64,000 nucleotides of DNA from a virus: the UHGV virus genome UHGV-1451962; one strand, 5' to 3'. The position numbers and the translations under genes are program-made. Under the pieces are notes generated by a model. The model was not told the DNA's origin and did not search any database. It was given only the letters and a program-made list of their open reading frames with translations. Below, piece by piece: positions 273 through 15,104 of the stretch (the first letter of the stretch is position 1; each line of letters opens with the position of its first letter).

Positions 273-300
273 CTGTAAAAGGGGTTATCCCCTTTTACAG
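273..300 (-). terminator. stem-loop at 3' end of the 295..843 gene (possible terminator)
   Basis: perfect 12-bp stem ctgtaaaagggg/ccccttttacag with 4-nt loop; no clean U-tract, so function uncertain. Confidence 0.3.
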
Positions 301-843
301 TAGAGAGTTCAAAAACTTATTAATTCTTTCTGCATCATCATCAATCTTGTTACTAAAAGCCTTAGCAACAGAGAAAAGCTTATTCACCTTATCCAATTCC
401 TTAGTCATGCTTTCAGCCAAAAGATTGATACTATCATCATCAAGACTAATCTCATCAAGCATAGGACGCATAGCAGGAGCAATCTGATAAAGACCCTCAA
501 TCAAAAGAATAATAAAATCCTCAGTAGTAATCTTACCATTACTCAAATGAACAAGAGCATTATTAATTTTTACATGCAGATTACCAAAAATGAAATCTCT
601 ATCACCTTCAACAGGAGTCTTCACCAACCAAAAACTCTTCTTCTTATTCTGCTCTGCCTTAAAAGTAGACTCCGCGGCATTGGCTCGCTCAGAGATATAC
701 TTCATAATCTCATCCATAGACTTGCCCTTGCGCAGCTCATCCATAATATAATCCTCAAACTTCATAGTAGTCTTGCAGTTACAAGAGGAGTTAAGCTCGG
801 CAGTAGAGGCGTTACAGCAATCATTAACCTTATAAGTAGACAT
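295..843 (-). CDS. hypothetical protein
   Basis: 182-aa ORF; promoter/RBS cassette immediately upstream (881-909, RBS complement of 'ttcctttcc' at ~853-861). Confidence 0.5.
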   Translation of the reverse strand: MSTYKVNDCCNASTAELNSSCNCKTTMKFEDYIMDELRKGKSMDEIMKYISERANAAESTFKAEQNKKKSFWLVKTPVEGDRDFIFGNLHVKINNALVHLSNGKITTEDFIILLIEGLYQIAPAMRPMLDEISLDDDSINLLAESMTKELDKVNKLFSVAKAFSNKIDDDAERINKFLNSLL

Positions 844-880
844 AAATTTTTAATTCCTTTCCTTTTGTTTTTCTATATAT

Positions 881-909
881 ATTATATAATAATTTTTTAA
901 TATTTTCAA
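881..909 (-). promoter_or_regulatory. sigma-A-type promoter (TTGAAA-N17-TATAAT) for the 295..843 gene
   Basis: minus-strand -35 is complement of 'tttcaa' 904-909; -10 is complement of 'attata' 881-886; 17-nt spacer. Confidence 0.5.
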
Positions 910-1016
910 TTGCGGATATAGGGGAGTAGTTATTTTGAATTTTCATTTGGAAAAAATTGGGGAATGGAACTCACAATTTCTGAAGGGAAAATTGAAAGTG
1001 AGAGAGAAAAGTTAAT

Positions 1017-1089
1017 GGAATAATAAATCGACCGAAGGTCGATTTATTATTCCTTAGTAAATAAGTCATCCGAAGGATGACTTATTTAC
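1017..1089. other. two adjacent perfect stem-loops with GAA loops
   Basis: 1017-1053: 17-bp stem ggaataataaatcgacc/ggtcgatttattattcc, loop gaa; 1057-1089: 15-bp stem gtaaataagtcatcc/ggatgacttatttac, loop gaa. Confidence 0.85.
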
Positions 1090-1124
1090 GTTATGTAAGT
1101 AGAGTGGTGAAGTAAAATAATACT

Positions 1125-1403
1125 TAAAAAATTAACCTATTTTTTCTGTATGTGGTTATATATATTGGTATACATTTTTTTGAGGTTAATTTTAAATCCA
1201 GATTTTAACGTATTATTATCAATGAGTATGAGATCTTTGCTTCTTTTTTGTACCTATGGTTGAATATAACCATATACAATTTTTTGACGCAAAAATTTTA
1301 TGTTCATTGGTAAACAGTATATTAAAGCTGATTTAAAATTAACCTCAAAAAAATGTATACCAATATATATAACCACATACAGAAAAAATAGGTTAATTTT
1401 TTA
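1125..1403. repeat. 74-bp perfect inverted repeat (arms 1125-1198 and 1330-1403) flanking a 131-bp spacer
   Basis: reverse complement of 1330-1403 equals 1125-1198 base for base (checked manually); spacer 1199-1329 is AT-rich and non-coding. Confidence 0.9.
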
Positions 1404-1495
1404 GGTTATTTTTGTTAAATCTTCCTTATCCAGAATTTATATTTTAATAGTAGAATAAAAATTCTACAAATTTTATTTTAAGGAGATTTAACAAA

Positions 1496-2128
1496 ATGAT
1501 AATTACAAGAAGAAAACTTAGTGAAAAATATTCTATATCGCATAATGTTTGGGATAGAAAACATGATGAATTAATGCTTCATCTTCAAGAATATATGGAT
1601 ATAACTGAATTCAAATCCAATAAAGGCAGATATACCTATGAAATCAAAGGCGAAATGCCTGATGTAATCCCTTCATTAAGAACTGCTCAAACTAAACAAA
1701 AGAAAAAAGATTATGAGAAGTTCACTATTACCGCTTTAGGTACTGAATTCAAACCCAATAGTAAGAGCAAAATCGCCAGAGATGCTATTGCGGATTTTGG
1801 ATATGAAAAATATAAGCATAAATCTCAACGCTTTGTGGCCGAACAATACATCAAAGAGCCATTTAATAAATATGGCATTAGCGATGGAAACCAGTATTGG
1901 TGTTTTTATTCAACCTATGAGGTTATGGATGAAACCATCGTTACTGAGTGGCGCAAAATCCTCTCTGAAGAGAAGATTGGTGAAGAAGAAGCAGCCAATG
2001 CTTTTTACCGCCAAGCGCAAGGAGAAGATATCTCTACCGAACTGCAGTTCTACAAGAACGCCATGAATAGATTTAAAGAAAAGTATAATGATATACCGGT
2101 TCTAGTTAAAAAGTGGAAGTGTAAATAA
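1496..2128 (+). CDS. hypothetical protein
   Basis: 210-aa ORF preceded by 'aaggagatttaacaaaATG'; terminator hairpin downstream at 2228-2286. Confidence 0.55.
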   Translation: MIITRRKLSEKYSISHNVWDRKHDELMLHLQEYMDITEFKSNKGRYTYEIKGEMPDVIPSLRTAQTKQKKKDYEKFTITALGTEFKPNSKSKIARDAIADFGYEKYKHKSQRFVAEQYIKEPFNKYGISDGNQYWCFYSTYEVMDETIVTEWRKILSEEKIGEEEAANAFYRQAQGEDISTELQFYKNAMNRFKEKYNDIPVLVKKWKCK

Positions 2129-2227
2129 CACTTCCACTTTCAACAAACCGAGCGGGCATATGTGTTTCTCTTTCTTTTTCCTTTTCCTTTTGTTTATATA
2201 AATATTATATAATAATTTTAATTATTA

Positions 2228-2286
2228 ATCAACTTGACTTTTATTTTTTCTTTTGTTTTTTGAAAAGTCAAGTTGATTTTTTTTTA
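2228..2286 (+). terminator. rho-independent terminator-like hairpin
   Basis: 15-bp stem atcaacttgactttt/aaaagtcaagttgat with 20-nt loop, followed by a T-run. Confidence 0.5.
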
Positions 2287-2511
2287 TACCTTAAATTTTT
2301 AAAAAGTCAAATGCGGACTTTGACTTGACAAATTAAAAAAAATTTTTTTCCGAGCGGGTGAGCCACTTTCGGGAAAAACCCCGGCCATATGAAGGGTCGC
2401 TAGAAGTCTAGAAAAATCGCCATATGCTAGTGGAAAGGGGATTTCGGGCTGTGACCACTGTCCACAGCCCGCCACTCCTTATATATAGTATACCATAAAA
2501 CCAGCCTTATG

Positions 2512-2712
2512 TCAATCGGCATTTTCACCAAAAGTAAATTTTATTTTATTACTAGGACACTTCACGCACAAATACACATCTCCATTTTCTTCTTTTTGAA
2601 TATAAAAAGTAAATAACTGGCCGGTTTCCATTCCTAGATAATCTCTTAACTTAGAAGGGATAACTAATCGACCAGTCGAGTCCAGCTTTCTGGCAAATTC
2701 AGTTTTCAACAT
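2512..2712 (-). CDS. small AbrB/SpoVT-like DNA-binding protein
   Basis: 'GRLVIPSKLRDYLGMETGQ' resembles the AbrB swapped-hairpin N-domain motif (GRVVIP..LR..LGI). Confidence 0.45.
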   Translation of the reverse strand: MLKTEFARKLDSTGRLVIPSKLRDYLGMETGQLFTFYIQKEENGDVYLCVKCPSNKIKFTFGENAD

Positions 2713-2995
2713 ATCCAGATATTTTTTTCTGATGACCTAGACGTGCGAAATTTCAACCCTAAAACGGGCCTTTCTATCTCTAAAATCTTTAAAGTAATTT
2801 ACCACTCACAAGGCATCTTAGAACAGAAATCACGCATAACACAAACTTCGCAATTATCCTACTTTAGGCAGTATTCAATAATCACCGCAAGTACCTTTAA
2901 TAATTCACAGGTCATTAGAAAAGCTCCTTTCCTTAATTTCTATATATATTATAACATAATTTTTTAGAAAAAACAAAAAAGAACTCTGAGTATTC

Positions 2996-3463
2996 TCAGA
3001 GTTCTTTAGTTTCTGTCACAAAGTATTTGGCATTGTAATCCACCAGAATTTTCTTAACTTGGCTACTCTCCATTTGTGTGGCACAATAAACATTAAAAAT
3101 TGAATATTTACCTACATTTTCAATATAATTATGCGGAATTGAGTTTAGTCTTTCGTGAAGTTGTTTTGTAAATTCACCGGGGACAGTCACCTCAATTCGC
3201 CACAATTTTTCTTTTCTTCCTTTTGCTTCCGCCCACTTAACCGCATACACGCCAACCAGATTACAGCCAAAGGTAACTAATACCTTCTGCCACAGAGGGA
3301 AATCCGCGACTGTGTAAATAAGAACTATATTATAATAACCATAGTACAGAGCAGAAATCATGCTTGCGGAAAATGGTGTACCATTAATAGTTACAATGCT
3401 TTTGATTGTCGAAAAAACCACATTGGCAATGGAGAGACCAATAAATAACAAGAGTAAAGACAA
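2996..3463 (-). CDS. hypothetical membrane protein
   Basis: 155 aa with several hydrophobic segments (LLLLFIGLSIANVVF..., ALYYGYYNIVLIYTV...). Confidence 0.45.
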   Translation of the reverse strand: MSLLLLFIGLSIANVVFSTIKSIVTINGTPFSASMISALYYGYYNIVLIYTVADFPLWQKVLVTFGCNLVGVYAVKWAEAKGRKEKLWRIEVTVPGEFTKQLHERLNSIPHNYIENVGKYSIFNVYCATQMESSQVKKILVDYNAKYFVTETKEL

Positions 3464-3652
3464 TTAAATACCCGCCTTTCTGCACATCACAAAGAACTCT
3501 TCCAGAGGAACCCAAGCCCCATCAATAGTAATCAATGGCCACCAATCTCCTTCACATTCTTTGTCATAGTCCATGAAGTAGTCATAGGCTTTCTGCAAAG
3601 AATCAAACTTCGCAAAATCGCCGTTGTAGCGGTCAGTAATTTTGATAATCAT
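3464..3652 (-). CDS. hypothetical protein
   Basis: 62-aa ORF abutting the neighbouring ORFs in the same orientation. Confidence 0.35.
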   Translation of the reverse strand: MIIKITDRYNGDFAKFDSLQKAYDYFMDYDKECEGDWWPLITIDGAWVPLEEFFVMCRKAGI

Positions 3653-4242
3653 TATTCTTCATCCTCCTTTTCCCAGCAAACAATATATTGTGAGTATTCA
3701 CCATTTGGTTTAAGAAATTGAACCTTATAGCCTGCTTCCTCAAGTATTTGAGTAATAATTTTTGTATCTTCTAGAAGATTAATAGTAGCAGCAAATTTTC
3801 CATCTTCTGCGGCACTTAGAAGATTAAACATAATTTGCCCAAGGGCTTCAGTGATTACTGTAGATCTTGCTTGTAGTGTTTTATCAAGCATCCCTTTAGC
3901 ATCCAACCAGTTCGTAGGTTTTCTAATTTCTATTTCTACCTTCCTTTCTCTATGGAAGAGGGCTTTTCGGCCCTCTTCTTCTTCCATAACTACACCAGCA
4001 AGAATTAAAGTGTTGCAGATGCACTGCCAAGCATAAAGACCCATATTTTGGGGAATGGCTTCCCAAATCTCAGGCCGCAACTTCTTCAGGCCAGTTAGAA
4101 GCATACCGCCCCAGTCGCCACCGCAAGCAACGCACTTGTCCAAAAACTGGCCAAAGGTAATGTTTAACGGCTCACAGCTATCAATAGCTTCAAGAACATC
4201 CTCACCCCAGTTCTTTGCGATGAAGTCTCTGCGTTCATTCAT
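3652..4242 (-). CDS. hypothetical protein
   Basis: 196-aa ORF; promoter/RBS cassette upstream at ~4250-4300. Confidence 0.5.
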   Translation of the reverse strand: MNERRDFIAKNWGEDVLEAIDSCEPLNITFGQFLDKCVACGGDWGGMLLTGLKKLRPEIWEAIPQNMGLYAWQCICNTLILAGVVMEEEEGRKALFHRERKVEIEIRKPTNWLDAKGMLDKTLQARSTVITEALGQIMFNLLSAAEDGKFAATINLLEDTKIITQILEEAGYKVQFLKPNGEYSQYIVCWEKEDEE

Positions 4243-4560
4243 ACTATCAACCTCTTTCCTTAATTTCTGTATTCATTATAGCATCTTTGCCCTGGTTTGT
4301 CAAGACCTTTTTTATTTTTTTTGAAATTTTTAAATCCCCTTTCCTTTTGTGATTATATAATAACATAATTTTGGGAAAATGTCAATAAGTAAAATTGTAC
4401 AAATCAAAAGCAGAAAAATTGTGGAAAATGTATATTGACACGAATTCGGGCCACATCCACCAAGCGCGGCCCGTCGAGTTTTGTTATTGCTTTACTTTTG
4501 CTTATAACAAGTATAGGGATAAAAAAAGGATAGTGGCTATTAACCACTATCCTTTAATAA

Positions 4561-4812
4561 TCAAACATCTTCAATTACGATATTTTCGCCGATCTCTGCT
4601 AAGTTTTGCAAAATATCTGACGCTTCTCCCACTTTTGCGGCATCAATGGTTTCGTATTTGCCAATATAACTATTAGCAGACATCACCTCCCAAATTTGAT
4701 TAAGAATGTCAGAGGCTTGCTCAAGACGATCAATTTCTTCTTGGGATAAGCGAACCTCGCATTGCTTTTCAATAACAATCATGTTCTCTTCCTCCTTATA
4801 GTTCGATCTCAT
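4561..4812 (-). CDS. hypothetical protein
   Basis: 83-aa acidic ORF. Confidence 0.4.
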   Translation of the reverse strand: MRSNYKEEENMIVIEKQCEVRLSQEEIDRLEQASDILNQIWEVMSANSYIGKYETIDAAKVGEASDILQNLAEIGENIVIEDV

Positions 4813-5140
4813 AGGTTTTGCGGATAGTAACCTTTACTTTCTTGGGTTTTTGTTTACAGCAAAATCTGTCATTGCGGACAAATTCGCCGATAGAAGATTC
4901 CTGCCATGCTGCACGATTCTTATCCTCATATCGCAAAGTCGAATACTTAGACAAAGGCAGATGCCAATCATAGACAAACTTAGCGGATTTCGGCATAGTA
5001 AACTTAGGTGAACGCTTATAATTTCTGGTATGCTCTTGCTGTCTCCGGGCTAAATCATTAGTAGTGCCTATTTTGAGAATGTAGTTGCCTTCTACATCAA
5101 AATAGTGACCTACATACAAATACTCTTTCTTTTGTTGCAT
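4796..5140 (-). CDS. hypothetical protein
   Basis: 114-aa ORF. Confidence 0.45.
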   Translation of the reverse strand: MQQKKEYLYVGHYFDVEGNYILKIGTTNDLARRQQEHTRNYKRSPKFTMPKSAKFVYDWHLPLSKYSTLRYEDKNRAAWQESSIGEFVRNDRFCCKQKPKKVKVTIRKTYEIEL

Positions 5141-5197
5141 TTACATCACCTTTTTCGTCAAAATTAGCTCTTTTTTAAGTGAAAAGGGCCAAAAACT

Positions 5198-5587
5198 TTA
5201 CTTTTTGGCCCTTTTCTGAACTAAAGTCAACTCAAAGGCGTTATTATCAACAGAAAAAGCAATCTGTCGCTCAGGATTTGCAATTTTTACATCACAAATC
5301 CCCAAAGATTCAAGAAAACCTGCAAGTTCCGCAATCAAATTTGCTTTAGTGGGGTTCTCTTTTCTTTCTCTTTTAATAGGGGTCTTGCGGTCATGCTTCT
5401 TAGTATGTTGCCCGGTAATAGTATACTTCTTTGCTACCTTTTGTTGTTCCTCGGTCAAATCCCATTCATGCGGGATGCCTTTATCAACCTCGCAGTCTGC
5501 CTTATAGATTTCTACTGCTTTTTCATAACTGCACTTGATGCCAGCTTGGATTCTTGCGATTGCTTCTTTTGCTTTGTCCAAAAACAT
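5198..5587 (-). CDS. hypothetical basic protein, paralog of 9346..9708
   Basis: shares spaced motifs with the 9346..9708 product (D.G...L.EEQ.KV.KK ... NPER.I ... F..TL). Confidence 0.5.
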   Translation of the reverse strand: MFLDKAKEAIARIQAGIKCSYEKAVEIYKADCEVDKGIPHEWDLTEEQQKVAKKYTITGQHTKKHDRKTPIKRERKENPTKANLIAELAGFLESLGICDVKIANPERQIAFSVDNNAFELTLVQKRAKK

Positions 5588-5611
5588 ACCTCCCCTCTAG
5601 GGAAGAGGGCC

Positions 5612-6034
5612 TTAGCCCTCTTCCTCTTCTACCACGGCCTGCGCCTTGTAGAAATGGGCAATACCCTTGTGGGTATCCTTGTAAGCAATACCCTCAGAGA
5701 CAAGAGCCTTGCACATAGGGGCGATACGCTGGGGAGTCAAATCTTCCAGTTCAGGAATGGCCTTGCGGAGCATTGCAATGGTCATACCATCTTCGGTCAA
5801 CTGCTCGGCAATCAGAGCCTTAAAATGCTCATTCTCAGTCTGGCGGGCAGTCTGCTTGCGGGAATTAGAACCCTTCTTAGCATCCAGCAGGCGAATTTCA
5901 TTGGAGAGGAAATCGGTCAGACCCTCAAAGTCAAAACCTTCGTCCTCACGGCCTTCGCACAGTTCCACCAGCTCAATCAGAGACTGGAAACGCTCACGCT
6001 TAGTAATTCTCTTGTTAGTATTTTCCATAAACAC
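5612..6034 (-). CDS. hypothetical protein, paralog of 9768..10124
   Basis: C-terminal region 'TARQTENEHFKALIAEQL...IPELEDLTPQRIAPMCKALVSEGIAYKDTHKGIAHFY' parallels 'TATQTENARLIEVIADTL...IPELNGFTPQKVGPMLKKLVETGRATRDTNKGKAYY'. Confidence 0.5.
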   Translation of the reverse strand: MFMENTNKRITKRERFQSLIELVELCEGREDEGFDFEGLTDFLSNEIRLLDAKKGSNSRKQTARQTENEHFKALIAEQLTEDGMTIAMLRKAIPELEDLTPQRIAPMCKALVSEGIAYKDTHKGIAHFYKAQAVVEEEEG

Positions 6035-6369
6035 CTATCTCGCTTTTGGTTTTTAAGAGTTTGTCCTTCTCTTGATTACATGCTTATTATAGCATGTTTC
6101 TTGGGGTTTGTCAAGAGGTTTCGCAAACTTTTCACAAGATTTACGGCTTCCAGAGCATGTTGGGCAATAACAATTACCACATGATATAAGACTTACCACT
6201 TGATGTATTTCGTTTACTTCCTATACTTTCTCACAGGTCGGCCGCCCTAGGATTTCTTGGGCTACTTCCTCCTGACATTATTTATTATATCAGATTTCAC
6301 CCAAATTGCAATAGGCAAATTGTACAAAAAGCGGGATTTTCCTCAAATAAATTTTGTGCAGTTTAACTC

Positions 6370-6398
6370 TTGACAAATTTTGTGCCGCGTGGTATAAT
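6370..6398 (+). promoter_or_regulatory. near-consensus promoter on the plus strand, opposite to the surrounding genes
   Basis: TTGACA 6370-6375, 17-nt spacer, TGgTATAAT with TATAAT at 6393-6398. Confidence 0.5.
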
Positions 6399-6404
6399 TG
6401 AAAT

Positions 6405-6513
6405 TTCGGCGCTCCACAGTCGTGGGCGCCGCGCCATTGTATCATAAAGCTGCGGTTTTGTCAATAGGCAAAATGTACAAAAAAATGAGGGAAAAATCCC
6501 TCATTTCCTTTTC
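6405..6513 (+). ncRNA. candidate small RNA / antisense transcript
   Basis: downstream of promoter 6370-6398: GC-rich hairpin 'cggcgctccacagtcgtgggcgccg', no credible ORF, then hairpin 'atgagggaaaaatccctcat' (6486-6505) followed by a T-rich stretch. Confidence 0.25.
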
Positions 6514-6777
6514 CACTTTGTCAAGATCAGCTTTCAGACTGTCAAGTTCCTGCTCTTTGTCCATAGTTTTTAATTCAAGCGCAGTCTCTAAATAACGTAA
6601 GTAATTCTGATAGTCATCGGTGCTATACTCAGAAAAAGTGAACCCTTTTCCTCTGAACTTATCTCTTACACGAGTGACACTTTTATGACATTGAACACGT
6701 TCTTCATACACAGCATAACTATCAGTTCCTTTCTTAATTTCTGTATTTATTATAGCGTCTTTGCTTTGAATCGTCAA
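6442..6777 (-). CDS. doubtful ORF (true product probably shorter)
   Basis: ORF runs through its own promoter/RBS cassette (6725-6795) and uses a TTG start; first in-frame ATG is far downstream. Confidence 0.2.
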   Translation of the reverse strand: MTIQSKDAIINTEIKKGTDSYAVYEERVQCHKSVTRVRDKFRGKGFTFSEYSTDDYQNYLRYLETALELKTMDKEQELDSLKADLDKVEKEMRDFSLIFLYILPIDKTAAL

Positions 6778-6805
6778 TAGACAAATTGCACAAAGTGGAA
6801 GATTT

Positions 6806-7339
6806 TTATAACTTCATTCCATTTGTTTGAAATGCTTTAGCTACTTTATCAAAGCAATCTTCCATTTTAAGAATTTCCTGCTTCTTACTTTCTATCTGAA
6901 AAAGAAGATTTACATAAACTTCCTGAAGGTATTCCCGATACCCACTAGCATTGAAGGCGAAAGTATCTCGATAACAAATAGTAATATCACTTCTATTATA
7001 GTGGATGCCTAATTCTTCCCCACCATTAGCCGCGATCAGAGCTTCCTTTGCCGCCACCAGCAGCTCTCTGTATTCCTTATACTTCATAAGAAGCTCGCCG
7101 GCACGGTTTGTTACATAAGGAGCAGTTTCTCTGCATCTAGGCCCATTTGTATCATAGACCGGTGCTTTACCAACCACTTTGATGATATTGTGGTTGAAGA
7201 GAGTTTCCGCCTTAGAGCGTCCCTTACCACGAGCCGCATCATATTTATCAGAGGTGAAGGGTTTATCCCCGAACAGTTTAACAACCTGAGCAGCACCTTC
7301 CAGAACGCTATTGCAATTTTTGATAGAGAACATAATCAT
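6806..7339 (-). CDS. hypothetical protein
   Basis: ORF track start at 7342 is TTG; ATG at 7339 sits 5 nt after the RBS (complement of 'cctttcct'); promoter at 7366-7394. Confidence 0.55.
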   Translation of the reverse strand: MIMFSIKNCNSVLEGAAQVVKLFGDKPFTSDKYDAARGKGRSKAETLFNHNIIKVVGKAPVYDTNGPRCRETAPYVTNRAGELLMKYKEYRELLVAAKEALIAANGGEELGIHYNRSDITICYRDTFAFNASGYREYLQEVYVNLLFQIESKKQEILKMEDCFDKVAKAFQTNGMKL

Positions 7340-7365
7340 CAATTCCTTTCCTGTTTTCTGTTGTT

Positions 7366-7394
7366 ATTATATCATGCTTTTGCTTACTTGTCAA
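7366..7394 (-). promoter_or_regulatory. sigma-A-type promoter with extended -10 (TTGACA-N17-TGaTATAAT)
   Basis: -35 is complement of 'tgtcaa' 7389-7394; -10 is complement of 'attata' 7366-7371; TG at 7373-7374. Confidence 0.6.
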
Positions 7395-7611: not shown

Positions 7612-7986
7612 ACCAGCGTGGACAACCCCTTCAAGGTCGAGAAATAATACCTACTTTGTCATTTGCAAAACTCCCTTTTGTTTTATTTTATCAGAGCGGC
7701 GCCTACTCTGACAGCTTTCTTGTTGTTTATTACTTTGGAGCAATAGAAAAAGCTAAGAAAATCTCCGCATCACTATATGGTTTTTATTTCGTTCATGTAA
7801 AACAACAGTGCAAACAAAATTCTGTAATAATTGGGTTAGCATGGCGGCGGGTGCCTGGTAATATCTATCATTCGCTTTACTCCTTTTTATTTATTTATTT
7901 GCCACTAAAACACTTTATCACCTCCCTTGACTGTACCTGTATTATATCACAGAAGAAAAGCTTTGTCAAGCCTTTTTTGCAATTTT

Positions 7987-8385
7987 TTAATCCTTAATAA
8001 GTTCTTTGGGAATAGTCCAACCAACGGCTCGGCAATAAGCAATAACCATACCAACCGCGGGAATGAAAGTGTCATTTGTTGTGGCTGTTGCTTTTCCAGT
8101 CAGGCGATGATTATTGCTGATAACTTCGCAAACAGTAGTTCTGCCCTCAATACTGAACTTTGCAGAAGTGCCATATAACATATGAGCATTGTCCTCTAAC
8201 CACTTCTGAGCAATAGAAGCCTTGCTTTCTGCGGATTGAACATACTTACGGAGAATAATTCCATCCGAACTGGTGCAAATTTCCAGTGGGTCTCCCTCCT
8301 GAATGTGCATGTTGCGGCGGATCTCCTTGGGGATGACCACCCGGCCCAGGTCGTCGATGCGGCGCACGATACCAGTAGTTTTCAT
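7987..8385 (-). CDS. AbrB-family transition-state-regulator-like DNA-binding protein
   Basis: N-terminus 'MKTTGIVRRIDDLGRVVIPKEIRRNMHIQEGDPLEI...GIILRKY' closely matches the AbrB N-domain (MKSTGIVRKVDELGRVVIPIELRRTLGI...IILKKY). Confidence 0.75.
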   Translation of the reverse strand: MKTTGIVRRIDDLGRVVIPKEIRRNMHIQEGDPLEICTSSDGIILRKYVQSAESKASIAQKWLEDNAHMLYGTSAKFSIEGRTTVCEVISNNHRLTGKATATTNDTFIPAVGMVIAYCRAVGWTIPKELIKD

Positions 8386-8452
8386 ATTTTTTTACTTCCT
8401 TTCTTTTACTGTATTTGTATTATACCATACAGTCCGGTCTTTGTCAAGCCTT

Positions 8453-9097
8453 TTATCTATCAAAACCGCTAAAATCCAAGATGATTGGGCGGTCATTTTT
8501 GTAACCAATGTTGGATTCGTGCAGGTCATTGATTCTGTTCTCAATGACAAACTCGCAAAGAGTTTTGCAAAGTCTTTTGCCATAGATAACAAGAGCCATC
8601 TTAGCCCAAAGAGGGTCTAAGTTTCTTGCATAGCGCCCATTAGGTGCCGCTTTCTTGAAACACTTGCCCATAAGCTGCGCTTTCTGGTCACTTGCGGTTT
8701 TGACCTTAGCCTTGTACTTCTTAAAGGTTTGATAGGAACAGCCACAAACCGCAAAGTCAATTTTCTCTTGCTTGATGAAGTTAATCCCATCTATCGTGCA
8801 GAAAAGCTCGGTCTTGGGGAAGAACATGCCCAAACCTGCTTTAACAGCTTTATTGTACATGTCAACCTCTTTAAGAGCTTCGTCATCAGTAAACTCATCA
8901 GGGTCAGAGTATGTCCACTTGATAACAAAGTCGGCTTTGTGAGGGATGAGACAAATTTTGCTGGAACCATAATCTATAGCGGCTTCACTTCCAAGCTTGA
9001 TTTCTCTCATTCTGCTCTGAATTTCCCAATCGGTCATGGAAGGGTCAATCCTTAACTCTTCAAGCCAATGAAGAACAGTCTGTTCCATCTTTGTCAT
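8453..9097 (-). CDS. hypothetical protein
   Basis: strong RBS (complement of 'ctcctccc' 9103-9110) precedes ATG at 9097 (MTKMEQ...); ORF track start 9166 is probably too far upstream. Confidence 0.5.
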   Translation of the reverse strand: MTKMEQTVLHWLEELRIDPSMTDWEIQSRMREIKLGSEAAIDYGSSKICLIPHKADFVIKWTYSDPDEFTDDEALKEVDMYNKAVKAGLGMFFPKTELFCTIDGINFIKQEKIDFAVCGCSYQTFKKYKAKVKTASDQKAQLMGKCFKKAAPNGRYARNLDPLWAKMALVIYGKRLCKTLCEFVIENRINDLHESNIGYKNDRPIILDFSGFDR

Positions 9098-9123
9098 GTT
9101 ATCTCCTCCCTTACTGTGATTAT

Positions 9124-9152
9124 AGTATAACACGGCAGGTCTTATTTGTCTA
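9124..9152 (-). promoter_or_regulatory. promoter (TAGACA-N17-TGtTATACT)
   Basis: read on the minus strand from 9152 down to 9124. Confidence 0.4.
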
Positions 9153-9211
9153 TTGGCGAAATGCACAAATTCGGAATTTTTGTCTGCCTAGTTTTTATGC
9201 ACTTTTGCCCA

Positions 9212-9240
9212 TTGACAAAAGTCGGATTACCTGGTATAAT
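9212..9240 (+). promoter_or_regulatory. near-consensus promoter on the plus strand, opposite to the surrounding genes
   Basis: TTGACA 9212-9217, 17-nt spacer, TGgTATAAT with TATAAT at 9235-9240. Confidence 0.5.
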
Positions 9241-9246
9241 TGAAAT

Positions 9247-9351
9247 GCGGCAGCGCTTGACCATGCGCGGGCCGCCAAACATTTACCATTGAGAAGTATT
9301 GGGCAAAAAAGAAAACCGGCCTATAAAAATAAGCCGGTTTTGTTATTATTT
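9247..9351 (+). ncRNA. candidate small RNA
   Basis: GC-rich hairpin 'gcggcagcgcttgaccatgcgcgggccgcc', no ORF, ends at bidirectional terminator hairpin 9312-9341 (aaaaccggc/gccggtttt) plus T-run. Confidence 0.25.
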
Positions 9352-9708
9352 TCTAGGAGCGCTTAATGTAATTTTGAAACGTCTTTCATTAAAAACTATC
9401 TCAATTTCTCGCTCTGGGTTATTGATGGTAGTTTCAATTTCAAGTTGTTCAAGAGATTCCGCAATAATCTCAATCAAGCGATGTTTGTCATTGTCAACCT
9501 TGCGCTGTCGGGGAGCATTCATAGTATATTTGCCTTTCTCTTTGCCGGATAACCGCATTTTCTTTTCTACTTTCTTTTGTTCATCAGTAAGTGGGAAAAG
9601 GTCTGCACCTTTATCTATTGCTTCATCATCAGCAATAACTGCCAAAGCTTGTTTTCTATCAAGGTCTAACACCTTCTGAAGATGTTTAACCCTAGCTTCA
9701 TCTATCAT
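9346..9708 (-). CDS. hypothetical basic protein, paralog of 5198..5587
   Basis: 120-aa ORF; see paralog motifs. Confidence 0.5.
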   Translation of the reverse strand: MIDEARVKHLQKVLDLDRKQALAVIADDEAIDKGADLFPLTDEQKKVEKKMRLSGKEKGKYTMNAPRQRKVDNDKHRLIEIIAESLEQLEIETTINNPEREIEIVFNERRFKITLSAPRK

Positions 9709-9732
9709 TAAACACCATCCTTTTTGAGAAAA

Positions 9733-9757
9733 TAAAGAGGGGCATTAAGCCCCTCTT
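9733..9757 (-). terminator. intergenic hairpin between 9768..10124 and 9346..9708
   Basis: stem aaagaggggc/gcccctcttt with 5-nt loop. Confidence 0.4.
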
Positions 9758-9767
9758 TATTTAATTA

Positions 9768-10124
9768 TTACACCATAGTGTAGTATGCCTTGCCCTTGTT
9801 GGTGTCACGAGTGGCTCGGCCAGTTTCAACCAGCTTCTTGAGCATGGGGCCAACCTTCTGAGGGGTAAAACCGTTCAGCTCAGGAATGGTCTTGGTAATG
9901 TCGGAAATGGTGAAAGCTTCGCCCTTGGGCAGAGTGTCAGCAATCACTTCAATCAGACGTGCGTTCTCAGTCTGAGTTGCAGTAGGCTTACCGCTACCAC
10001 GGCTCTTATTCTCCTGCTGATGAAGCAGAATCTCAATCTTGGCACGAACATCGGCAGGAATCTCGCAGTTGTCCAGAACATACTGAAGAGCGCCCTTGTT
10101 AGTAATCTTCTTCTCGTTAGTCAT
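9768..10124 (-). CDS. hypothetical protein, paralog of 5612..6034
   Basis: 118-aa ORF; see paralog motifs. Confidence 0.5.
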   Translation of the reverse strand: MTNEKKITNKGALQYVLDNCEIPADVRAKIEILLHQQENKSRGSGKPTATQTENARLIEVIADTLPKGEAFTISDITKTIPELNGFTPQKVGPMLKKLVETGRATRDTNKGKAYYTMV

Positions 10125-10233
10125 AATATCAATTCCTTTCTGTGCGGTAGGTCGCTACCCTAATTGTTAAGGAAGTGGGGAGGGTTTTCTCTCCCTCACT
10201 TCTCTTATATTATATCATTTTCCTTTTGTTTTG

Positions 10234-10941
10234 TCAAGCGGTTTTTTGATTTTCAAAAAGTTTTTTCCGCATTTTCTTCTTTTGCCGATAGCAGTAAATC
10301 ATAATCTCCCGCTCAATCCGCACATCGTCAAGACCTTTATGTTCTTCCTGAAAAGTGGGGTCTTTGATGATGAATCTATACAGATTTTCTGCTGTTGCTG
10401 AGAGTTTACCAGTTTTGGTTAAGAAACCGTGTTGTTCACAGAACCTTTTATAGGTAGGCATCTTTAGAATAACATCTCTTGCCATTTTGAGAGTATCCCA
10501 AATATCGGTACCATAGGGGAACCAATACCGATATTTACTCTTAGTAGTCCAGCGTTGAAGTAAATTCAATGCGTTCAGGTCGAATCTTGCATTGTGGGCG
10601 ACTACCTCTGTAATACCATATTCTGCCATGTCTGCAAGCATAGCTTGTCGAATCTGGTAAGTGTTAGCTATTTGTCGGATGCCCTGTCGAATATCTTCCA
10701 GATACTGGGGAATCTTTTCCGCATAATAGGCGGATTTCATAAGCTCACTTTCATCAAAGAAAATATCTCGATTAACAAAGGATTGTTCCTTGTAGATATT
10801 CCCTCTTGTATCCATAACACACCACCCGCAATCATAGACAAGAACTGAGGTCATGTCTAATCGGCCTTTTTGGTCAGTGATGGTGTTCGCTGTCTCAGTG
10901 TCCAGAAGCAGAACGTAATGTCTGCGCTTGTCAATGCTCAT
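10234..10941 (-). CDS. DnaQ-like (DEDDh) 3'-5' exonuclease
   Basis: Exo I motif 'LLLDTETAN' and Exo III motif 'VVAHNARFDLNAL'. Confidence 0.65.
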   Translation of the reverse strand: MSIDKRRHYVLLLDTETANTITDQKGRLDMTSVLVYDCGWCVMDTRGNIYKEQSFVNRDIFFDESELMKSAYYAEKIPQYLEDIRQGIRQIANTYQIRQAMLADMAEYGITEVVAHNARFDLNALNLLQRWTTKSKYRYWFPYGTDIWDTLKMARDVILKMPTYKRFCEQHGFLTKTGKLSATAENLYRFIIKDPTFQEEHKGLDDVRIEREIMIYCYRQKKKMRKKLFENQKTA

Positions 10942-10974
10942 GTTGCATCTACCTCTTCCTTAATTTCTGTACTT

Positions 10975-11003
10975 ATTATATCAGATTTTTTCTCATTTGT
11001 CAA
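10975..11003 (-). promoter_or_regulatory. sigma-A-type promoter with extended -10 (TTGACA-N17-TGaTATAAT)
   Basis: -35 is complement of 'tgtcaa' 10998-11003; -10 is complement of 'attata' 10975-10980; RBS complement of 'cctcttcc' 10953-10960. Confidence 0.6.
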
Positions 11004-11022
11004 GAACTTTTTGGCTCCCTGC

Positions 11023-11478
11023 TTAAAGCAGGGAAGCCAAGAAATCAATGATGTCACAAGTTTCAGGATTGACAGTTTCTCCCAAATGCCAACTGTCACG
11101 AACTTTCTTATTATCATCAATAAGAATTGCCTTAGATGCTTTTCTACGAACAGCATCCGCTTTAGTGGCTCCATACTTTAGACCATGAAAGTGGTCATAG
11201 GGGAAACCCCATTTCAAGAGCCAAGCCTTTTTAGCTTCTCGCACAGCCTTTGCATACTCAGGGCTGCTTTCTTTAGAAAGCCAAGTGATGATTGCAATCT
11301 CCCAACCAGCCTGTTTTAACTTGTTAATAAGCTCGTTAAGCTTATCCACGTCCCACATGGGTTTAGCTTCCAGGTAAGGGCTTGTATCTTCCTTCCGCAG
11401 CTTAGACAGCCAACCATTAACCCCATACAGGTCAGCAATAGTGCCGTCCATATCAAAAGCCAACATTTTGTCAGTCAT
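11023..11478 (-). CDS. HAD-superfamily phosphatase / nucleotidase-like protein
   Basis: HAD motif I 'FDMDGTIAD' near the N-terminus; start taken at the MTDK ATG (an in-frame TTG at ~11487 is also possible); ORF track start 11586 runs through the promoter. Confidence 0.55.
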   Translation of the reverse strand: MTDKMLAFDMDGTIADLYGVNGWLSKLRKEDTSPYLEAKPMWDVDKLNELINKLKQAGWEIAIITWLSKESSPEYAKAVREAKKAWLLKWGFPYDHFHGLKYGATKADAVRRKASKAILIDDNKKVRDSWHLGETVNPETCDIIDFLASLL

Positions 11479-11536
11479 AAGTGTCAACTTCTTTCCTTTA
11501 TTTCTATGGTAATTATACCACGGTAAGGCCCAAATG

Positions 11537-11722
11537 TCAAGCCTTAATTTCTTCAATGTCAAGAAGAATTTCACCAGTAGAATCATCTACCAAGTAATAC
11601 ATTGTAGTAGCATACTGAGCTAACCTATGAAAGAAATCCTCTGCCAATGAAAAGGAATCAAAAGGCCCGATAATTTCTTCATCGCCAACATGATAGATAG
11701 AATAAGTCTGCTTCATATGCAA
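11537..11722 (-). CDS. hypothetical protein
   Basis: 61-aa ORF. Confidence 0.3.
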   Translation of the reverse strand: MHMKQTYSIYHVGDEEIIGPFDSFSLAEDFFHRLAQYATTMYYLVDDSTGEILLDIEEIKA

Positions 11723-11731
11723 TACCTCCTA

Positions 11732-11889
11732 TCAAAAGATATGAATGAGAGTTTCATTCCCATTCTCTTCCAGATGACACTCATAGACAGAGCCTTTCTT
11801 GCGGGTTGCGTTCCGCATTGCGATACCCTTGTTATCAAAGTGTATCTGCCAACCATTGGGGAAAACTACCAGCCAGTCACGGTATTCGG
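11732..11889 (-). CDS. hypothetical small protein
   Basis: RBS (complement of 'ggcctccttttg') precedes 'MTEYRDW...'; the longer ORF-track version (to 12124) crosses promoter sequence. Confidence 0.35.
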
Positions 11890-12049
11890 TCATACTTTTG
11901 GCCTCCTTTTGTTTTCTGTAATTATTATAACAAAAATTTTTAAGAAATTCAATAATCAATTTTGATGATGTTTTGTCGCTATACTTTTTATAAACAAATG
12001 CCATTTCGGGATGAATACTTCCGGGTAAAATCACCAAACTTTCCTCTAA

Positions 12050-12115
12050 ATTTTTGTGCAATTTGCGCATTGACAGAATTTCGGCGCACACTGGGAGGTC
12101 ATGGTCGTGTGCGCG
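12050..12115 (+). other. third copy of the GC-rich hairpin element (cf. 6405-6440, 9247-9280)
   Basis: 'gaatttcggcgcacac...gtgtgcgcgccgccgc' shares the 'aatttcggcgc...gcgcc' core with the 6400 element. Confidence 0.3.
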
Positions 12116-12185
12116 CCGCCGCAATTATTATACCATACTTTTGCTTTGTTGTCAATAGATAAATTGAACAAAAAATTTTTATTTA

Positions 12186-12203
12186 TTTTTTTTTTTTTTT
12201 TTT
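12186..12203. repeat. 18-nt homopolymer T tract
   Basis: uninterrupted run of 18 T on the plus strand. Confidence 0.9.
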
Positions 12204-12250
12204 ACTGCTAGAAGCCTAGAAGTTTCATCATATAAGCATATAGCAAAAAT

Positions 12251-12273
12251 AAAAAGGGCCGCAAGGCCCTTTT
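12251..12273. terminator. bidirectional rho-independent terminator
   Basis: 'aaaaagggccgcaaggcccttttt': GC stem gggcc/ggccc, loop gcaa, flanked by A-run and T-run. Confidence 0.6.
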
Positions 12274-12570
12274 CACTTCCAAGTTTTTTCAAGTGGATTT
12301 TTGTTTATTTTACCGGAACCTTAATGGCCCACAAGCTTTCTAAACAGTCAAGCCCTATGTAAGACTCGCTCGCTTTTTCAAAAAGCTTTTTCTCCACTTC
12401 CTCCAAAGTCATGCAGAGATATTCTTCAAAGAAGTCAGGAGAAGCGTCTTTCTGTATCCTCGCAATCATCTCTTTTATTGTTGTTGCTTTGTCATAGGCT
12501 CATTACCATACTGGTCAGAAACTATAATGACGTAAGCATCTTTCTTTATAATAATCAACTCCTTTTCTTT

Positions 12571-12903
12571 TTACCACATGTCAACGTAGTGCTGTTTGTC
12601 ATTGGGATACTTGTGCTTAACAAGCGTGGCACATTCCTCATCATCGGTCGCAAGTCTGAGTTTGCTATCCACCAGAGCCACCAGCTCAGGAGCAGCTTCC
12701 TTGTAAAGAACTTCCAGCAGTTCTTTCAGAGCGCCTTTACCATAATAGCGGTAGTCCTCAGCAGTAATCTTCCAGACCATGATTTTCTCAGGGTCATAAC
12801 CGCAGTTGGGATAGTAGAGAGTCAAGTCTCCATCGTGAAGCACATAAGCGCTTTCATAGTAGGTTGCGGTGTACTGACTGTCGAATAGTTCCTTGTTAGT
12901 CAT
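12571..12903 (-). CDS. hypothetical protein
   Basis: 110-aa ORF with promoter/RBS cassette upstream. Confidence 0.55.
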   Translation of the reverse strand: MTNKELFDSQYTATYYESAYVLHDGDLTLYYPNCGYDPEKIMVWKITAEDYRYYGKGALKELLEVLYKEAAPELVALVDSKLRLATDDEECATLVKHKYPNDKQHYVDMW

Positions 12904-12934
12904 CTTTTGTTTCCCCTTTTTTTATCTTGATTAT

Positions 12935-12963
12935 ATAATACCATAATTTTGAGAAAACGTCAA
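12935..12963 (-). promoter_or_regulatory. promoter (TTGACG-N17-TATTAT)
   Basis: almost identical to the promoter upstream of 3652..4242 ('ttttcYcaaaattatgKtattatataatca'). Confidence 0.5.
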
Positions 12964-13054
12964 TAAGTAAAAATGCACAAATTAAGAATAAAAATTTGTA
13001 CAATACAAACAAAAGAAAAAGGAAGGCCGCAAAACCTTCCTTTTTCACTGCTGT

Positions 13055-13420
13055 TTAGAACAAATCTTGAAGCTGTTGAATAGCTTCATCAATATTGCAC
13101 CAGTTACCAGTGTGTTCATTGAGCACCAAGAGGGCTTCTTCTCCCGGAGTAAGAGAAGGAATTTTACAGTTGAAGCTAATGAAATAGCGCTTGAGCAATT
13201 CAACGGCTTCTTTATTACCATCGCACAAGATAGCAATAATAGGTGCAGGATTAGCTTTAAGGTTGAGCTTGACTTCGCCGAGCTTATCATACAGCTTGAA
13301 GCTATCCTCGCAACGCTTCGCCATTTCTTCCATCTCATGCAAGTTGCAGCTGTCATAGTCCTCAAAAACCTCACCGCAATACTCACAGAAGTAGACTGTC
13401 TTTTTCAACATAAAAATCAT
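13055..13420 (-). CDS. hypothetical Cys-containing (zinc-binding-like) protein
   Basis: 'CEYCGEVFEDYDSCNLHE' near the N-terminus. Confidence 0.45.
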   Translation of the reverse strand: MIFMLKKTVYFCEYCGEVFEDYDSCNLHEMEEMAKRCEDSFKLYDKLGEVKLNLKANPAPIIAILCDGNKEAVELLKRYFISFNCKIPSLTPGEEALLVLNEHTGNWCNIDEAIQQLQDLF

Positions 13421-13477
13421 CCTTTCTTTTATTATGGTCTTATTATACCACAGACTAAGCTTCTTGTCAAGACTTTT

Positions 13478-13650
13478 TTACAAACATTCAACCACTTCCC
13501 AAATCTGCTGATACTCTTCATAAGAGTTGGCGAAATCATTCTTACTGGCTTCATCGCGGCCCTCTTCTTTAATCCATTCCTTCCACTTGTCAAGGATCGC
13601 CTTGTTAGCTTTGTCCATCTTAACACCAATGATCTTCTTGATGTTCTTCA
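13478..13650 (-). CDS. hypothetical small protein
   Basis: RBS (complement of 'cccctttcctttt') precedes ATG of 'MKNIKKIIG...'; ORF track start 13726 overlaps the promoter. Confidence 0.4.
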
Positions 13651-13893
13651 TTTGTTTTATCCCCTTTCCTTTTGTAATTATATAATAACACACTTGCCGC
13701 AATAGGTCAATAGGCATACTGCACAATTCGGGATCCCAATTCTCTCTCTAAATTTAGCTATTTTGACTATTGATTTTGAGCAGACTTTGTGGTATACTGA
13801 TTCGGAAAGTTGCCTTGTAAAACGAAGACATTCGTTTATAACAAGTATGTTAAACAAAAGGAAAGAGATAAGCTAAGCTTACCTCTTCTCCTA

Positions 13894-14109
13894 TCATACT
13901 ACTTCATACTCATCATACTTCTTAGCCAAGACTAATACTTCCTGATATATCTTCTTTGGTATAATGTAAGCCCTCCAACGCAGGTCGCCATTAGGTTTGA
14001 AAGAAGTCTTTCTCCAACCAAAGAAGCATCTCCATAGAAAGCTTTTGCCCTCACAATACATTTCAATAAAATCTATCATACATTCATTGTCTATCCAGTA
14101 TTTTTTCAT
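13894..14109 (-). CDS. hypothetical protein
   Basis: 71-aa ORF. Confidence 0.35.
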   Translation of the reverse strand: MKKYWIDNECMIDFIEMYCEGKSFLWRCFFGWRKTSFKPNGDLRWRAYIIPKKIYQEVLVLAKKYDEYEVV

Positions 14110-14309
14110 ACTTCTCCAACCTCTCTTTTATTTTTAACCTTACAAAGTTCAATCTTGATTGCCTGACCATCAGGAAAGACTAAGCACTTGCGCAAACCAG
14201 AAGGAAAGCGAAACCATTGAACTTTAGCCCACTGCCAACTTTCTCCCTGGTAGTTGTTTCGCCATGTCTTAACAGGTGAGCAAGCATAGAACTCAAAAGT
14301 CTTTTTCAT
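14106..14309 (-). CDS. hypothetical protein
   Basis: 67-aa ORF overlapping the next gene start by 4 nt (coupled arrangement). Confidence 0.35.
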   Translation of the reverse strand: MKKTFEFYACSPVKTWRNNYQGESWQWAKVQWFRFPSGLRKCLVFPDGQAIKIELCKVKNKREVGEV

Positions 14310-14415
14310 TTGATCTTTCCTCCTTTTACTATCTATAGTATACCATACCTTAACCAGAATGTCAATACCTTTTTCATTTATTTATTTATAAAATAAAAAA
14401 GAAAAATGGTTCTGC

Positions 14416-14763
14416 TCATTTAAGAGCAGAACCATTCCAGAAGCCAAGAATCATGTCATCATAGACAAAACCTGGTGTAGCATTGTCATCAATAGCAATG
14501 AGAACGTCCTCACCTTTCACAAGGCCATCATCATCAATGGCGTACAGGTTGCCATCACGCATGTCTTTCAATGTCACACATCCATCATCATGAGTTGCAG
14601 TAACAGTAGCGCGAACCAGACGAACAGTATTCATACCATAGTGGATGCTGTTTGTTGCACAGTATCTGGCATTTTCAGCAGGAGTGCTAAGAGCGCAAGC
14701 AGAAGTAGTGAGAGCAGAGATAACGATTGCCAGAACAGCGATGATAGAGAAGAACTTTTTCAT
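14416..14763 (-). CDS. secreted protein / possible lipoprotein
   Basis: N-terminal signal peptide 'MKKFFSIIAVLAIVISALTTSACA' with a lipobox-like L-T-T-S-A-C. Confidence 0.5.
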   Translation of the reverse strand: MKKFFSIIAVLAIVISALTTSACALSTPAENARYCATNSIHYGMNTVRLVRATVTATHDDGCVTLKDMRDGNLYAIDDDGLVKGEDVLIAIDDNATPGFVYDDMILGFWNGSALK

Positions 14764-15104
14764 AGGTCATTGACCCCTTTCCTTAATTTCTGTATTTATT
14801 ATACCATCAAGACAGCCTTTTGTCTATTGACACATTGAACAAAAGAAAAAGAAATTAAAAGTTCTTCTTTGTGCATTTTGCTGAAGAATAATTTTGTTTA
14901 ATTCGCCTATTGACAAGACCATTTTTCTTTTGATTAATGAATAGTTGTTTACAGAAGATACTGTTTGATGGGGCCTTTGTGGGGTTAATGGATATTTACC
15001 AATGAAAGATAGTTTAATGGTTTGGCGTACTCCGGGGTAGTTTTCGGGAAAAAAATTATATTTGTTATTAAAAACCATTTGGCCTGGACACTTCTCTCTC
15101 TAAG

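Follow-up and report, generated by a model that had tools for sequence, protein, structure and literature searches.

Why should one block of small genes in a phage genome be far richer in G+C (GC) than the genes on either side of it? The question is raised by the human-gut virus genome UHGV-1451962, of which we analysed a stretch of 64,000 nucleotides (hereafter the window, with positions counted from its first letter). A sequence-only reading of this window had singled out positions 295-14800 as an early block markedly GC-richer than the rest of the genome, and had proposed a horizontally acquired or mosaic module, a different codon-usage regime or a chimeric assembly. Here, we propose that the block is a conserved immediate-early gene array with a lasting compositional regime of its own, the remainder of the genome (the backbone) being held AT-rich by selection, preferably through a temporal partition of translation. 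We put the probability of this explanation at about 0.6.

Extent and nature of the GC-rich island

A two-change-point likelihood fit over 39.7 kb (9.7 kb fetched left of the window and window positions 1-30000) placed the GC-rich island at 2346-14745, with 39.6% GC compared with 30.0% in the remaining 27 kb and a log-likelihood gain of 175. As the fit starts at 2346, positions 295-2300 lie outside the block, which is real but had been drawn with a misplaced left boundary. Direct counts gave 38.3% GC for 295-14800, 39.4% for 2500-14800 and 30.1% for 14801-64000. The sliding-window profile showed that GC is not uniform, and the values estimated by eye were borne out by counting, for the GC-rich spots (52.4% at 5600-6000 and 54.1% at 9780-9840) as well as for the GC-poor ones (24.9% at 46000-46200 and 28.3% at 15200-18700). 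The split had nevertheless been overstated as two-fold: the contrast is 1.3-fold at the level of blocks and about 2.9-fold at third codon positions (GC3 of 0.42 vs 0.145).

The 9.7 kb left of the window have about 29% GC and a GC3 mostly between 0.1 and 0.25, and the right flank (15219-18697), on the same strand as the island, shows GC3 values of 0.09-0.31. Since low-GC minus-strand genes are found on both sides, the block is indeed GC-richer than the rest, not as an early arm opposed to a structural arm but as an island within the leftward arm. Inside the island, sequence outside open reading frames (ORFs) has 34.8% GC, compared with 41.0% for coding sequence, and carries consensus promoters, consistent with the AT-rich intergenic promoter cassettes first noticed by eye.

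The contrast is located mainly at silent sites. Indeed, the median GC3 is 0.40 for the 26 island genes (range 0.28-0.57) and 0.16 for the 41 other genes (range 0.09-0.35; Mann-Whitney p = 9e-12), with a modest gap at first codon positions (GC1 of 0.47 vs 0.40) and no significant difference at second positions (GC2, p = 0.25; 26 vs 41 genes). The gap between the two gene classes therefore goes beyond amino-acid content, as GC3 differs, GC2 does not and every codon family is shifted. Both C (C3 of 0.206 in the island vs 0.051 in the backbone) and G (G3 of 0.213 vs 0.094) are raised at third positions, as illustrated by CTG (0.20 vs 0.01) and GAC (0.43 vs 0.09). Of the three proposals, the different codon-usage regime is thus the one that holds, in the form of a global, stable shift in C3 and G3 which is found family-wide (see below). 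Across relatives, GC3 follows the calibration GC3 = 2.0*GC - 0.42; on this line the island resembles a 42%-GC genome and the backbone a 28%-GC genome.

Smaller GC peaks (40% GC) were observed in the capsid-region (28344-30062) and tail-tube (33796-34737) genes. Their codon pattern, with T3 of 0.57, A3 of 0.14 and a preference for AAG, CAG and GAG, is distinct from those of both island and backbone and is typical of translational selection. As the capsid genes differ from it in pattern, the island does not bear the signature of highly expressed genes, and translational selection of that kind was rejected as an explanation for it.

The designation of the island as an early array comes from its promoters. 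A consensus scan of positions 1-19000 detected 13 sites that match TTGACA-17-TATAAT perfectly and have TG upstream; 12 of them lie inside the island, ten on the coding strand. With six further island promoters scoring 11/12, the total reaches 18 near-consensus sigma-A promoters with an extended -10 (Table 1); overall, the scan returned 111 sites in 1-19000 compared with 62.6 +/- 7.3 in shuffled sequences. The promoters sit within conserved promoter-leader cassettes of 30-80 nt, present in about 15 copies (families D1-D3, D5 and D7), and come with many intrinsic terminators. The resulting arrangement in about 16 short, strongly promoted transcription units has the anatomy of an immediate-early or host-takeover module.

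At a distance of ~40 nt, a plus-strand promoter (6370-6398) and a minus-strand one (6436-6464), both of perfect or near-perfect consensus, point towards each other, and a third promoter, on the plus strand (12/12, 9212-9240), reads antisense into gene 9346-9708; this layout suggests antisense RNA or transcriptional interference within the array. Several minus-strand island promoters are followed by GC-rich hairpin leaders without an ORF (2299-2486, 6399-6435 and 12060-12126), which terminate in ...GCGCCGAAAT or ...GCCCGAAAT, and the one at 2325-2480 in a U-run. These leaders are candidate small RNAs; the one at 2325-2480, on the minus strand, was rejected as such, since it folds no better than shuffled sequences (z = -1.36) and has no Rfam match.

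Continuity of the assembly and conservation in relatives

By exact-protein look-up, the window matches two ENA assemblies, ERZ28662716 scaffold_29 of 137,488 bp and ERZ27261203 k119_109814 of 137,671 bp, and it also matches Logan contigs of run ERR1137165. The two ENA assemblies do not begin at the same position, which is what a circular or circularly permuted genome would give; of its ~137 kb we read 81 kb (the window and fetched extensions).

A chimera of two phages joined at shared repeats would produce a compositional jump, and the Logan assembly of ERR1137165 indeed has the island on a contig of its own (13.75 kb, window 1374-15124), bounded by a tandem array of 34-bp units and an inverted repeat of 84 nt. 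These breaks are, however, accounted for by the two repeats themselves. The same 137.5-kb genome was closed by two assemblers with differing start points, and the edges are crossed by strains from other runs and samples: strain L076 (Logan SRR8555110), 92-96% identical, is unbroken from window position 16542 to 2135 and crosses both edges, and the right-hand junction is present in three further samples (L132, JGI 3300045988; L133, SAMEA3664526; L134, SAMN07448981). Moreover, the cultured relative Enterococcus phage H1 has a matching gene order. The suggestion of a chimeric assembly is therefore refuted, and we leave it virtually no chance.

The tandem array at the right edge varies in length, being ~39 nt longer in the other ENA assembly and partly deleted in L076, and Logan contigs stop on either side of it. 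A 104-aa ORF of only 14% GC (15219-15533) adjoins it and is mostly missing in L076, together with half of the array. The arms of the inverted repeat (1115-1198 and 1330-1413) are 95% complementary and flank a 131-nt spacer between the divergent genes 295-843 (minus) and 1496-2128 (plus). Some 3 kb past the right end of the window (3951-4568 of the strain contig L125) lies a gene for a serine recombinase of 205 aa (Pfam Resolvase), and the repeat could be an invertible switch. No matching direct repeats were found at the two edges of the island.

The phage belongs to a large family of SPbeta-related siphoviruses of 100-150 kb from gut Firmicutes, judging from Pfam matches of its structural genes to YonG_N, YonD_N, YonB, YomW, YomV_2nd, YomU_Tube and YomO (on strain loci collinear with the window). 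Its nearest named relative is phAss-1 from the human gut, which uses genetic code 15 (portal 38-40% and capsid protein 50% identical), followed by the ~140-kb Enterococcus phages EF1, H1 and VRE9 (portal 30% and exonuclease 39% identical). Metagenomes hold more than 6000 homologues of the portal and more than 4100 of the exonuclease.

A profile of the island exonuclease (Table 1) retrieved 36 IMG/VR loci, in which the core genes of the module keep the same position, divergent from the packaging genes, with a partly shuffled gene order and some genes duplicated. The distribution of the island is thus not patchy, as the core genes are co-located in these 36 loci, in H1 and in phAss-1. The array of H1, promoter-dense and made of small genes, has 17 consensus promoters, ends in HAD and exonuclease genes and lies divergent from the terminase and portal genes. 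Among the 17 loci carrying both gene sets (often mutually close relatives, perhaps 10 independent lineages), the module is GC-richer than the packaging genes in every case: the difference is +0.11 to +0.18 in GC and +0.22 to +0.36 in GC3 for 16 relatives, and +0.03 and +0.07, respectively, for one outlier. The window itself gives +0.107 and +0.245. In phAss-1, the GC3 of the module is 0.68-0.73 compared with 0.35-0.44 in the portal and packaging genes (an offset of about +0.3), and the late region has 31-40% GC compared with ~50% in the early/tRNA (transfer RNA) region. Regression of module GC3 on backbone GC3 gave a slope of 0.86 (r = 0.61); as the one rises with the other, the offset travels with each genome and is not the mark of a common source whose composition is fixed. 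A "common pool" model, with equal module GC in all phages, is ruled out by this slope.

The island also carries the dinucleotide signature of its own genome. Its composition-corrected distances (delta*) to segments of the resident genome are 60-99, with a spread of 67-106 among the backbone segments, and its CpG rho of 0.66 compares with 0.47-0.79 in the resident genome and 0.89-0.99 in the modules of GC-richer relatives.

These data bear on the idea of a recent mosaic import, in which the module would have been swapped in from a related phage of ~41-42% GC and would be incompletely ameliorated. Such an import would fit the sharp right edge at a variable tandem array, the island GC3 of 0.42, equal on the calibration line to that of ~42%-GC family members, and the presence of homologues in GC-richer contigs (41% in L002, 42-50% in L077). 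It would also fit the whole-cassette indels between strains and the clustering of strain differences in the island (variance/mean of 1.5-2.7, compared with ~1 in the backbone, where changes are Poisson-scattered), as well as the third-position changes on the window's own branch, with 4 from A or T to G or C (W>S) and 16 in the opposite direction (S>W). On the other hand, the nearest non-conspecific homologues are just 68-77% identical in protein, the module is core and syntenic in the family, and the offset is seen again in all 17 relatives and in phAss-1, at distances large enough to saturate silent sites. The CpG depletion of the island is like that of the resident genome and unlike that of the putative donors, and divergence between L076 and the window is alike in the flank (93.3% identity) and in the island (92.4-95.7%). 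We consider a recent import improbable. A horizontally acquired module is unsupported as a recent or foreign acquisition in view of this synteny and family-wide offset, and a different donor lineage fares no better, given the shared CpG depletion and equal divergence. Judging from the relatives, the GC-richer island is a long-standing, conserved property of the module, neither a recent import nor a misassembly.

Substitution patterns and the two compositional regimes

The direction of change in each compartment was read from singletons, defined as sites where one strain differs while all others agree, counted at third codon positions. In the island (4 strains, 3.8 kb), 34 W>S and 49 S>W singletons imply an equilibrium GC3 of 0.36 (rough interval 0.26-0.47, the counts being small), for a current value of 0.45. 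In the backbone (5 strains, 8.7 kb), 153 W>S and 48 S>W singletons imply an equilibrium of 0.42, for a current value of 0.186. A three-taxon polarisation of the backbone was discarded in favour of these five-strain singletons because it is prone to mis-polarisation, 32% of third-position S sites differing in the outgroup. Expressed per site, the rates are 0.060 (W>S) and 0.106 (S>W) in the island and 0.066 and 0.091 in the backbone. The input of change is thus alike in island and backbone and indicates an equilibrium GC3 of ~0.4 (about 0.36-0.42), so that constraint appears to act on the AT-rich backbone and not on the island. In other species of the family, modules are at equilibrium (W>S vs S>W of 60/58 and 43/45) and backbones lie below it (current vs implied GC3 of 0.38 vs 0.43, 0.41 vs 0.50 and 0.36 vs 0.46). 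With the same input, an island near equilibrium and a backbone far below it, mutation-selection balance is the simplest reading. The scaled selection coefficient computed from the rates, about -1.15, is of ordinary strength for codon-level selection. The island counts also speak against import, since a drift to the backbone value would need ~34:126 singletons where 34:49 were observed (pooled island).

A recombination hot spot with GC-biased gene conversion, driven by the repeated promoter-leader cassettes, could also raise GC locally. The ~15 conserved cassettes of 30-80 nt would provide its substrate, and shuffled order and duplicated genes among relatives, as well as the clustered strain differences in the island, would be its expected traces. 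However, island substitutions show no W>S bias (34 vs 49; 60 vs 58 and 43 vs 45 in the other species), the W>S excess is found in the backbone, where changes are unclustered, and the cassettes of H1, arranged in the same way, come without a GC offset. This mechanism seems very improbable to us.

As the main alternative, the backbone itself may be out of equilibrium: after a recent move into a GC-richer mutational or host environment it would be drifting upward, the early array having already been replaced or equilibrated. Such a drift would fit the unclustered backbone singletons, among which W>S outnumber S>W by 3:1, and the species has one of the most AT-rich backbones among the sampled relatives. 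Yet other species with much GC-richer backbones show a smaller excess in the same direction, and the exchange with a sister clade diverged by 7.4% is nearly balanced (201 vs 241). Furthermore, the offset is family-wide and would require many simultaneous shifts, so that a standing mutation-selection balance fits better. We grant this alternative a small chance.

In the explanation that we prefer, the ~26 small genes, arranged in ~16 short units each behind a near-consensus host sigma-A promoter, would be transcribed immediate-early. Mutation would drive both compartments towards a GC3 of ~0.36-0.42; the early array (0.42-0.45) would sit near this value and the middle and late backbone genes (0.15-0.19) would be kept well below it. 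The most likely cause would be selection favouring codons that end in A or T, or AT-richness of the DNA or mRNA, acting in the backbone and not in the early array. In a temporal partition of translation, the early genes would have to be read by a naive host, and later genes could be written in AT-rich codons, for which family members possess large tRNA arrays of their own: phAss-1 has 36 tRNA genes, three of them suppressors, H1 has 18, many with U34 anticodons, and the distant relative L137 has 9 plus a transfer-messenger RNA (tmRNA). These arrays, together with TAG recoding in one branch, favour the temporal partition. In L137, a 165-kb contig, the phage-encoded tmRNA (20592-20940) adjoins the tRNA array.

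Several observations weigh against this explanation. No tRNA gene was detected in the 81 kb read (window, fetched extensions and all strain loci scanned). The operon at 15.2-18.7 kb, low in GC, likewise has a 12/12 consensus promoter in front of it, so that being "early" is not by itself predictive of high GC, and the expression timing that makes the island an immediate-early array would follow from promoters alone. The array of H1 has no GC offset (GC3 of 0.225 vs 0.202); as H1 is more distant, the trait would belong to the gut-clostridial branch of the family. Finally, the 17 relatives stand for fewer independent lineages, the equilibrium of the island has a wide interval and the W>S excess of the backbone could instead mean a compartment out of equilibrium.

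Compositional jumps in metagenome-assembled phages are routinely taken for misassembly or recent transfer. Here, the jump is neither, and examining the same module in relatives makes it recognisable as a property of the module. If the AT-rich bulk is the unusual compartment, it offers a handle on why large phages exceed the AT-richness expected from mutation, and the finding connects a non-recoded phage to the biology of its stop-codon-recoded relatives.

Gene content, neighbouring features and known systems

All credible island genes are on the minus strand and small (50-237 aa); those with recognisable domains are listed in Table 1 together with the promoters and the surrounding features. 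The exonuclease has a homologue annotated as exodeoxyribonuclease in H1 and 4108 metagenome proteins match it at E<=1e-10. Next to it, the nucleotidase is 54% identical to a phAss-1 gene, and the corresponding neighbour in H1 is annotated as a HAD-like hydrolase. The gene pairs A and B, which hold the GC maxima, are paralogous (45% and 32% identity) and form a duplicated two-gene cassette. Most island proteins remained without annotation, and no integrase or transposase match was found (20 larger proteins compared with Pfam and 10 with PHROGs). Likewise, no Rfam match was obtained for the whole window at the gathering threshold or for the island at E<=0.1.

Table 1. Coordinates of the island, its main genes and promoters, and neighbouring features of the window
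Feature	Position	Strand	Supporting data
GC-richer island, early-gene array	2346-14745	minus	39.6% GC, GC3 ~0.42, ~26 small genes; change-point fit, per-gene GC, codon table
AbrB/MraZ-like small protein, last gene of the island	2512-2712	minus	PF02381 2.9e-5; homologues in most relatives
Likely membrane protein, module core gene	2996-3463	minus	hydrophobic N-terminal two-thirds (translation, by eye); relatives 44-64% identical
T5orf172-domain protein, module core gene	4796-5140	minus	PF10544 1.3e-4; homologues in relatives 62-72% identical
Gene pair A (5612-6034 and 5198-5587)	5198-6034	minus	holds GC maximum, 5600-6000 = 52.4%
AbrB/MazE-type DNA-binding-domain protein	7987-8385	minus	PF04014 8.8e-12; homologues in relatives
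Gene pair B (9768-10124 and 9346-9708)	9346-10124	minus	holds second GC maximum; GC3 of 9768-10124 = 0.57
DnaQ-like exonuclease, module core gene	10234-10941	minus	phrog_20187 1.5e-45; phrog_192 (DNA polymerase exonuclease subunit) 2e-4
HAD/NT5C-like nucleotidase, module core gene	11023-11586	minus	phrog_2643 (5'-3' deoxyribonucleotidase) 9e-8
Near-consensus extended -10 promoter, example	14337-14365	minus	consensus scan
Other island promoters, ends of second hexamer	2487, 4275, 4357, 6086, 6436, 6749, 7366, 7941, 8419, 10209, 10975, 11512, 12127, 13442, 14798	minus	consensus scan
Plus-strand island promoters, ends of second hexamer	6398, 9240	plus	consensus scan
Tandem repeat, 34 bp x 4.2, right edge of the island	15099-15239		tandem repeat finder; 4 motif copies, none in shuffles
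Low-GC right flank: ClpP-like protease, SleB-type cell-wall hydrolase, unknowns	15219-18697	minus	12/12 promoter 18669-18697
Divergent packaging genes, backbone reference	18847-21720	plus	GC3 0.18; YonG_N Pfam match on second gene
Retroelement reverse transcriptase	60051-61307	minus	
Retroelement template repeat	61586-61693	minus	
Retroelement accessory gene, 154 aa	61727-62191	minus	
Retroelement variable repeat	62384-62491	minus	3' end of target gene
Big_3-domain target gene	62370 to about 64133, past the window end	minus	

Among the packaging genes, HNH (NUMOD) and GIY-YIG homing-endonuclease genes (21998-23669; GC3 of 0.10 and 0.09) vary in presence and position between strains (L131, L132, L134 and L135). 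At the other end of the window, on the minus strand of 60051-64000, we found a complete diversity-generating retroelement (Table 1), in which 21 of the 22 mismatches between template and variable repeats fall at template adenines.

Searches for close relatives and for a host returned little. Compared by megablast with 50,697 phage records, the island and the structural block gave a 100-bp match only, and the species has no entry in IMG/VR. A metagenome scan beyond the window retrieved a distant relative and ~4 kb of a related strain, whose protein is 91% identical. In the portal cluster, which comprises some 50 strains, members lie on contigs of 134-137.7 kb; one member protein occurs on 9 contigs and a second one on 5. 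In the host search, none of 185,579 genomes held a relative of the SleB-like hydrolase. The exonuclease profile was discarded as a host clue, as its hits, five short contigs of metagenome-assembled genomes, were of inconsistent taxa (Treponema, Oscillospiraceae, Clostridia, Bacteroidales and Acutalibacteraceae) and were treated as binning noise. The Enterocloster phage PMBT24 (OQ326496, host E. bolteae) was rejected as a cultured relative, for the module is absent and relatedness only marginal; the first 50 kb of its 100-kb record, which was the portion examined, has 32.8% GC.

Compared with known systems, the island resembles genomic islands and morons in its atypical GC and codon usage, its sharp edges and the repeat at one edge. 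It differs from them in being syntenic in all relatives examined, in its resident dinucleotide signature and in its stable composition, and no mobility gene was found in it. With the SPbeta-like phages and EF1/H1/VRE9, the phage shares the Yon/Yom structural families, a genome of ~137 kb, a very long tape measure protein and, beside the packaging genes, an early array with HAD and exonuclease genes. Protein identity to these phages is only 23-39%, however, and the H1 array lacks the offset.

In Bacillus phage SPO1, the host-takeover module groups 24 small genes into 12 operons behind strong early promoters and is located in the terminal redundancy. The island is similar in its compact small genes, mostly of unknown function, nearly every one with its own strong sigma-A promoter and ribosome-binding site, and read by the host RNA polymerase. 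This likeness is one of architecture: no sequence relationship was seen, no search aimed at SPO1 having been made. To our knowledge, no compositional offset has been described for the SPO1 module.

phAss-1 is a stop-codon-recoded phage (code 15), whose branch recodes TAG in late genes (PMC10607447). Our phage shares its genome plan and the polarity of its GC split, and the family is equipped with devices by which the translation of late genes is marked off. Unlike in phAss-1, neither in-frame TAG nor a suppressor tRNA was found in the 81 kb read, and late genes are normal in code 11, under which no structural ORF is interrupted, not even one of 2871 aa. No gene ends in TAG either (0/66 in the window, 0/36 in the fetched extensions and none in three other strain loci; the survey covered the whole window and L073, L125, L131, L132 and L135). 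TAG accounts for ~21% of all stop-type triplets and occurs often out of frame; in relatives, its share of stops is about 14-45%. Its lack as a stop may reflect a TAG-free state, or a suppressor tRNA encoded in the remaining 56 kb of the genome. One might further imagine a two-regime genome kept by selection, in which immediate-early genes would stay legible to the naive host, later genes would need phage-supplied tRNAs for efficient decoding of their AT-rich codons and codon usage would act as a timing device. Recoding in phAss-1 would then be an escalation and this species, with TAG as neither stop nor sense codon in 102 genes, would possibly be a TAG-free intermediate, a scheme which we regard as doubtful.

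Finally, early and late phage genes are known to differ in codon usage and GC (Mioduser et al. 2017, PMC5683454); in lambda, it is the early genes that come closer to the codon usage of the host (PMC5683454, PMC5737525). Our genome is alike in that silent sites and GC differ between gene classes of one genome. A partition of codon usage between early and late genes is also said to have been described in T4, by Cowe & Sharp in 1991. The present split differs in being very large (GC3 of 0.42 vs 0.15), sharply bounded and conserved across the family, and in being confined to one promoter-dense module rather than spread over all non-structural genes. It is a pronounced case of the known early/late codon-usage phenomenon, for which the cause would be selective.

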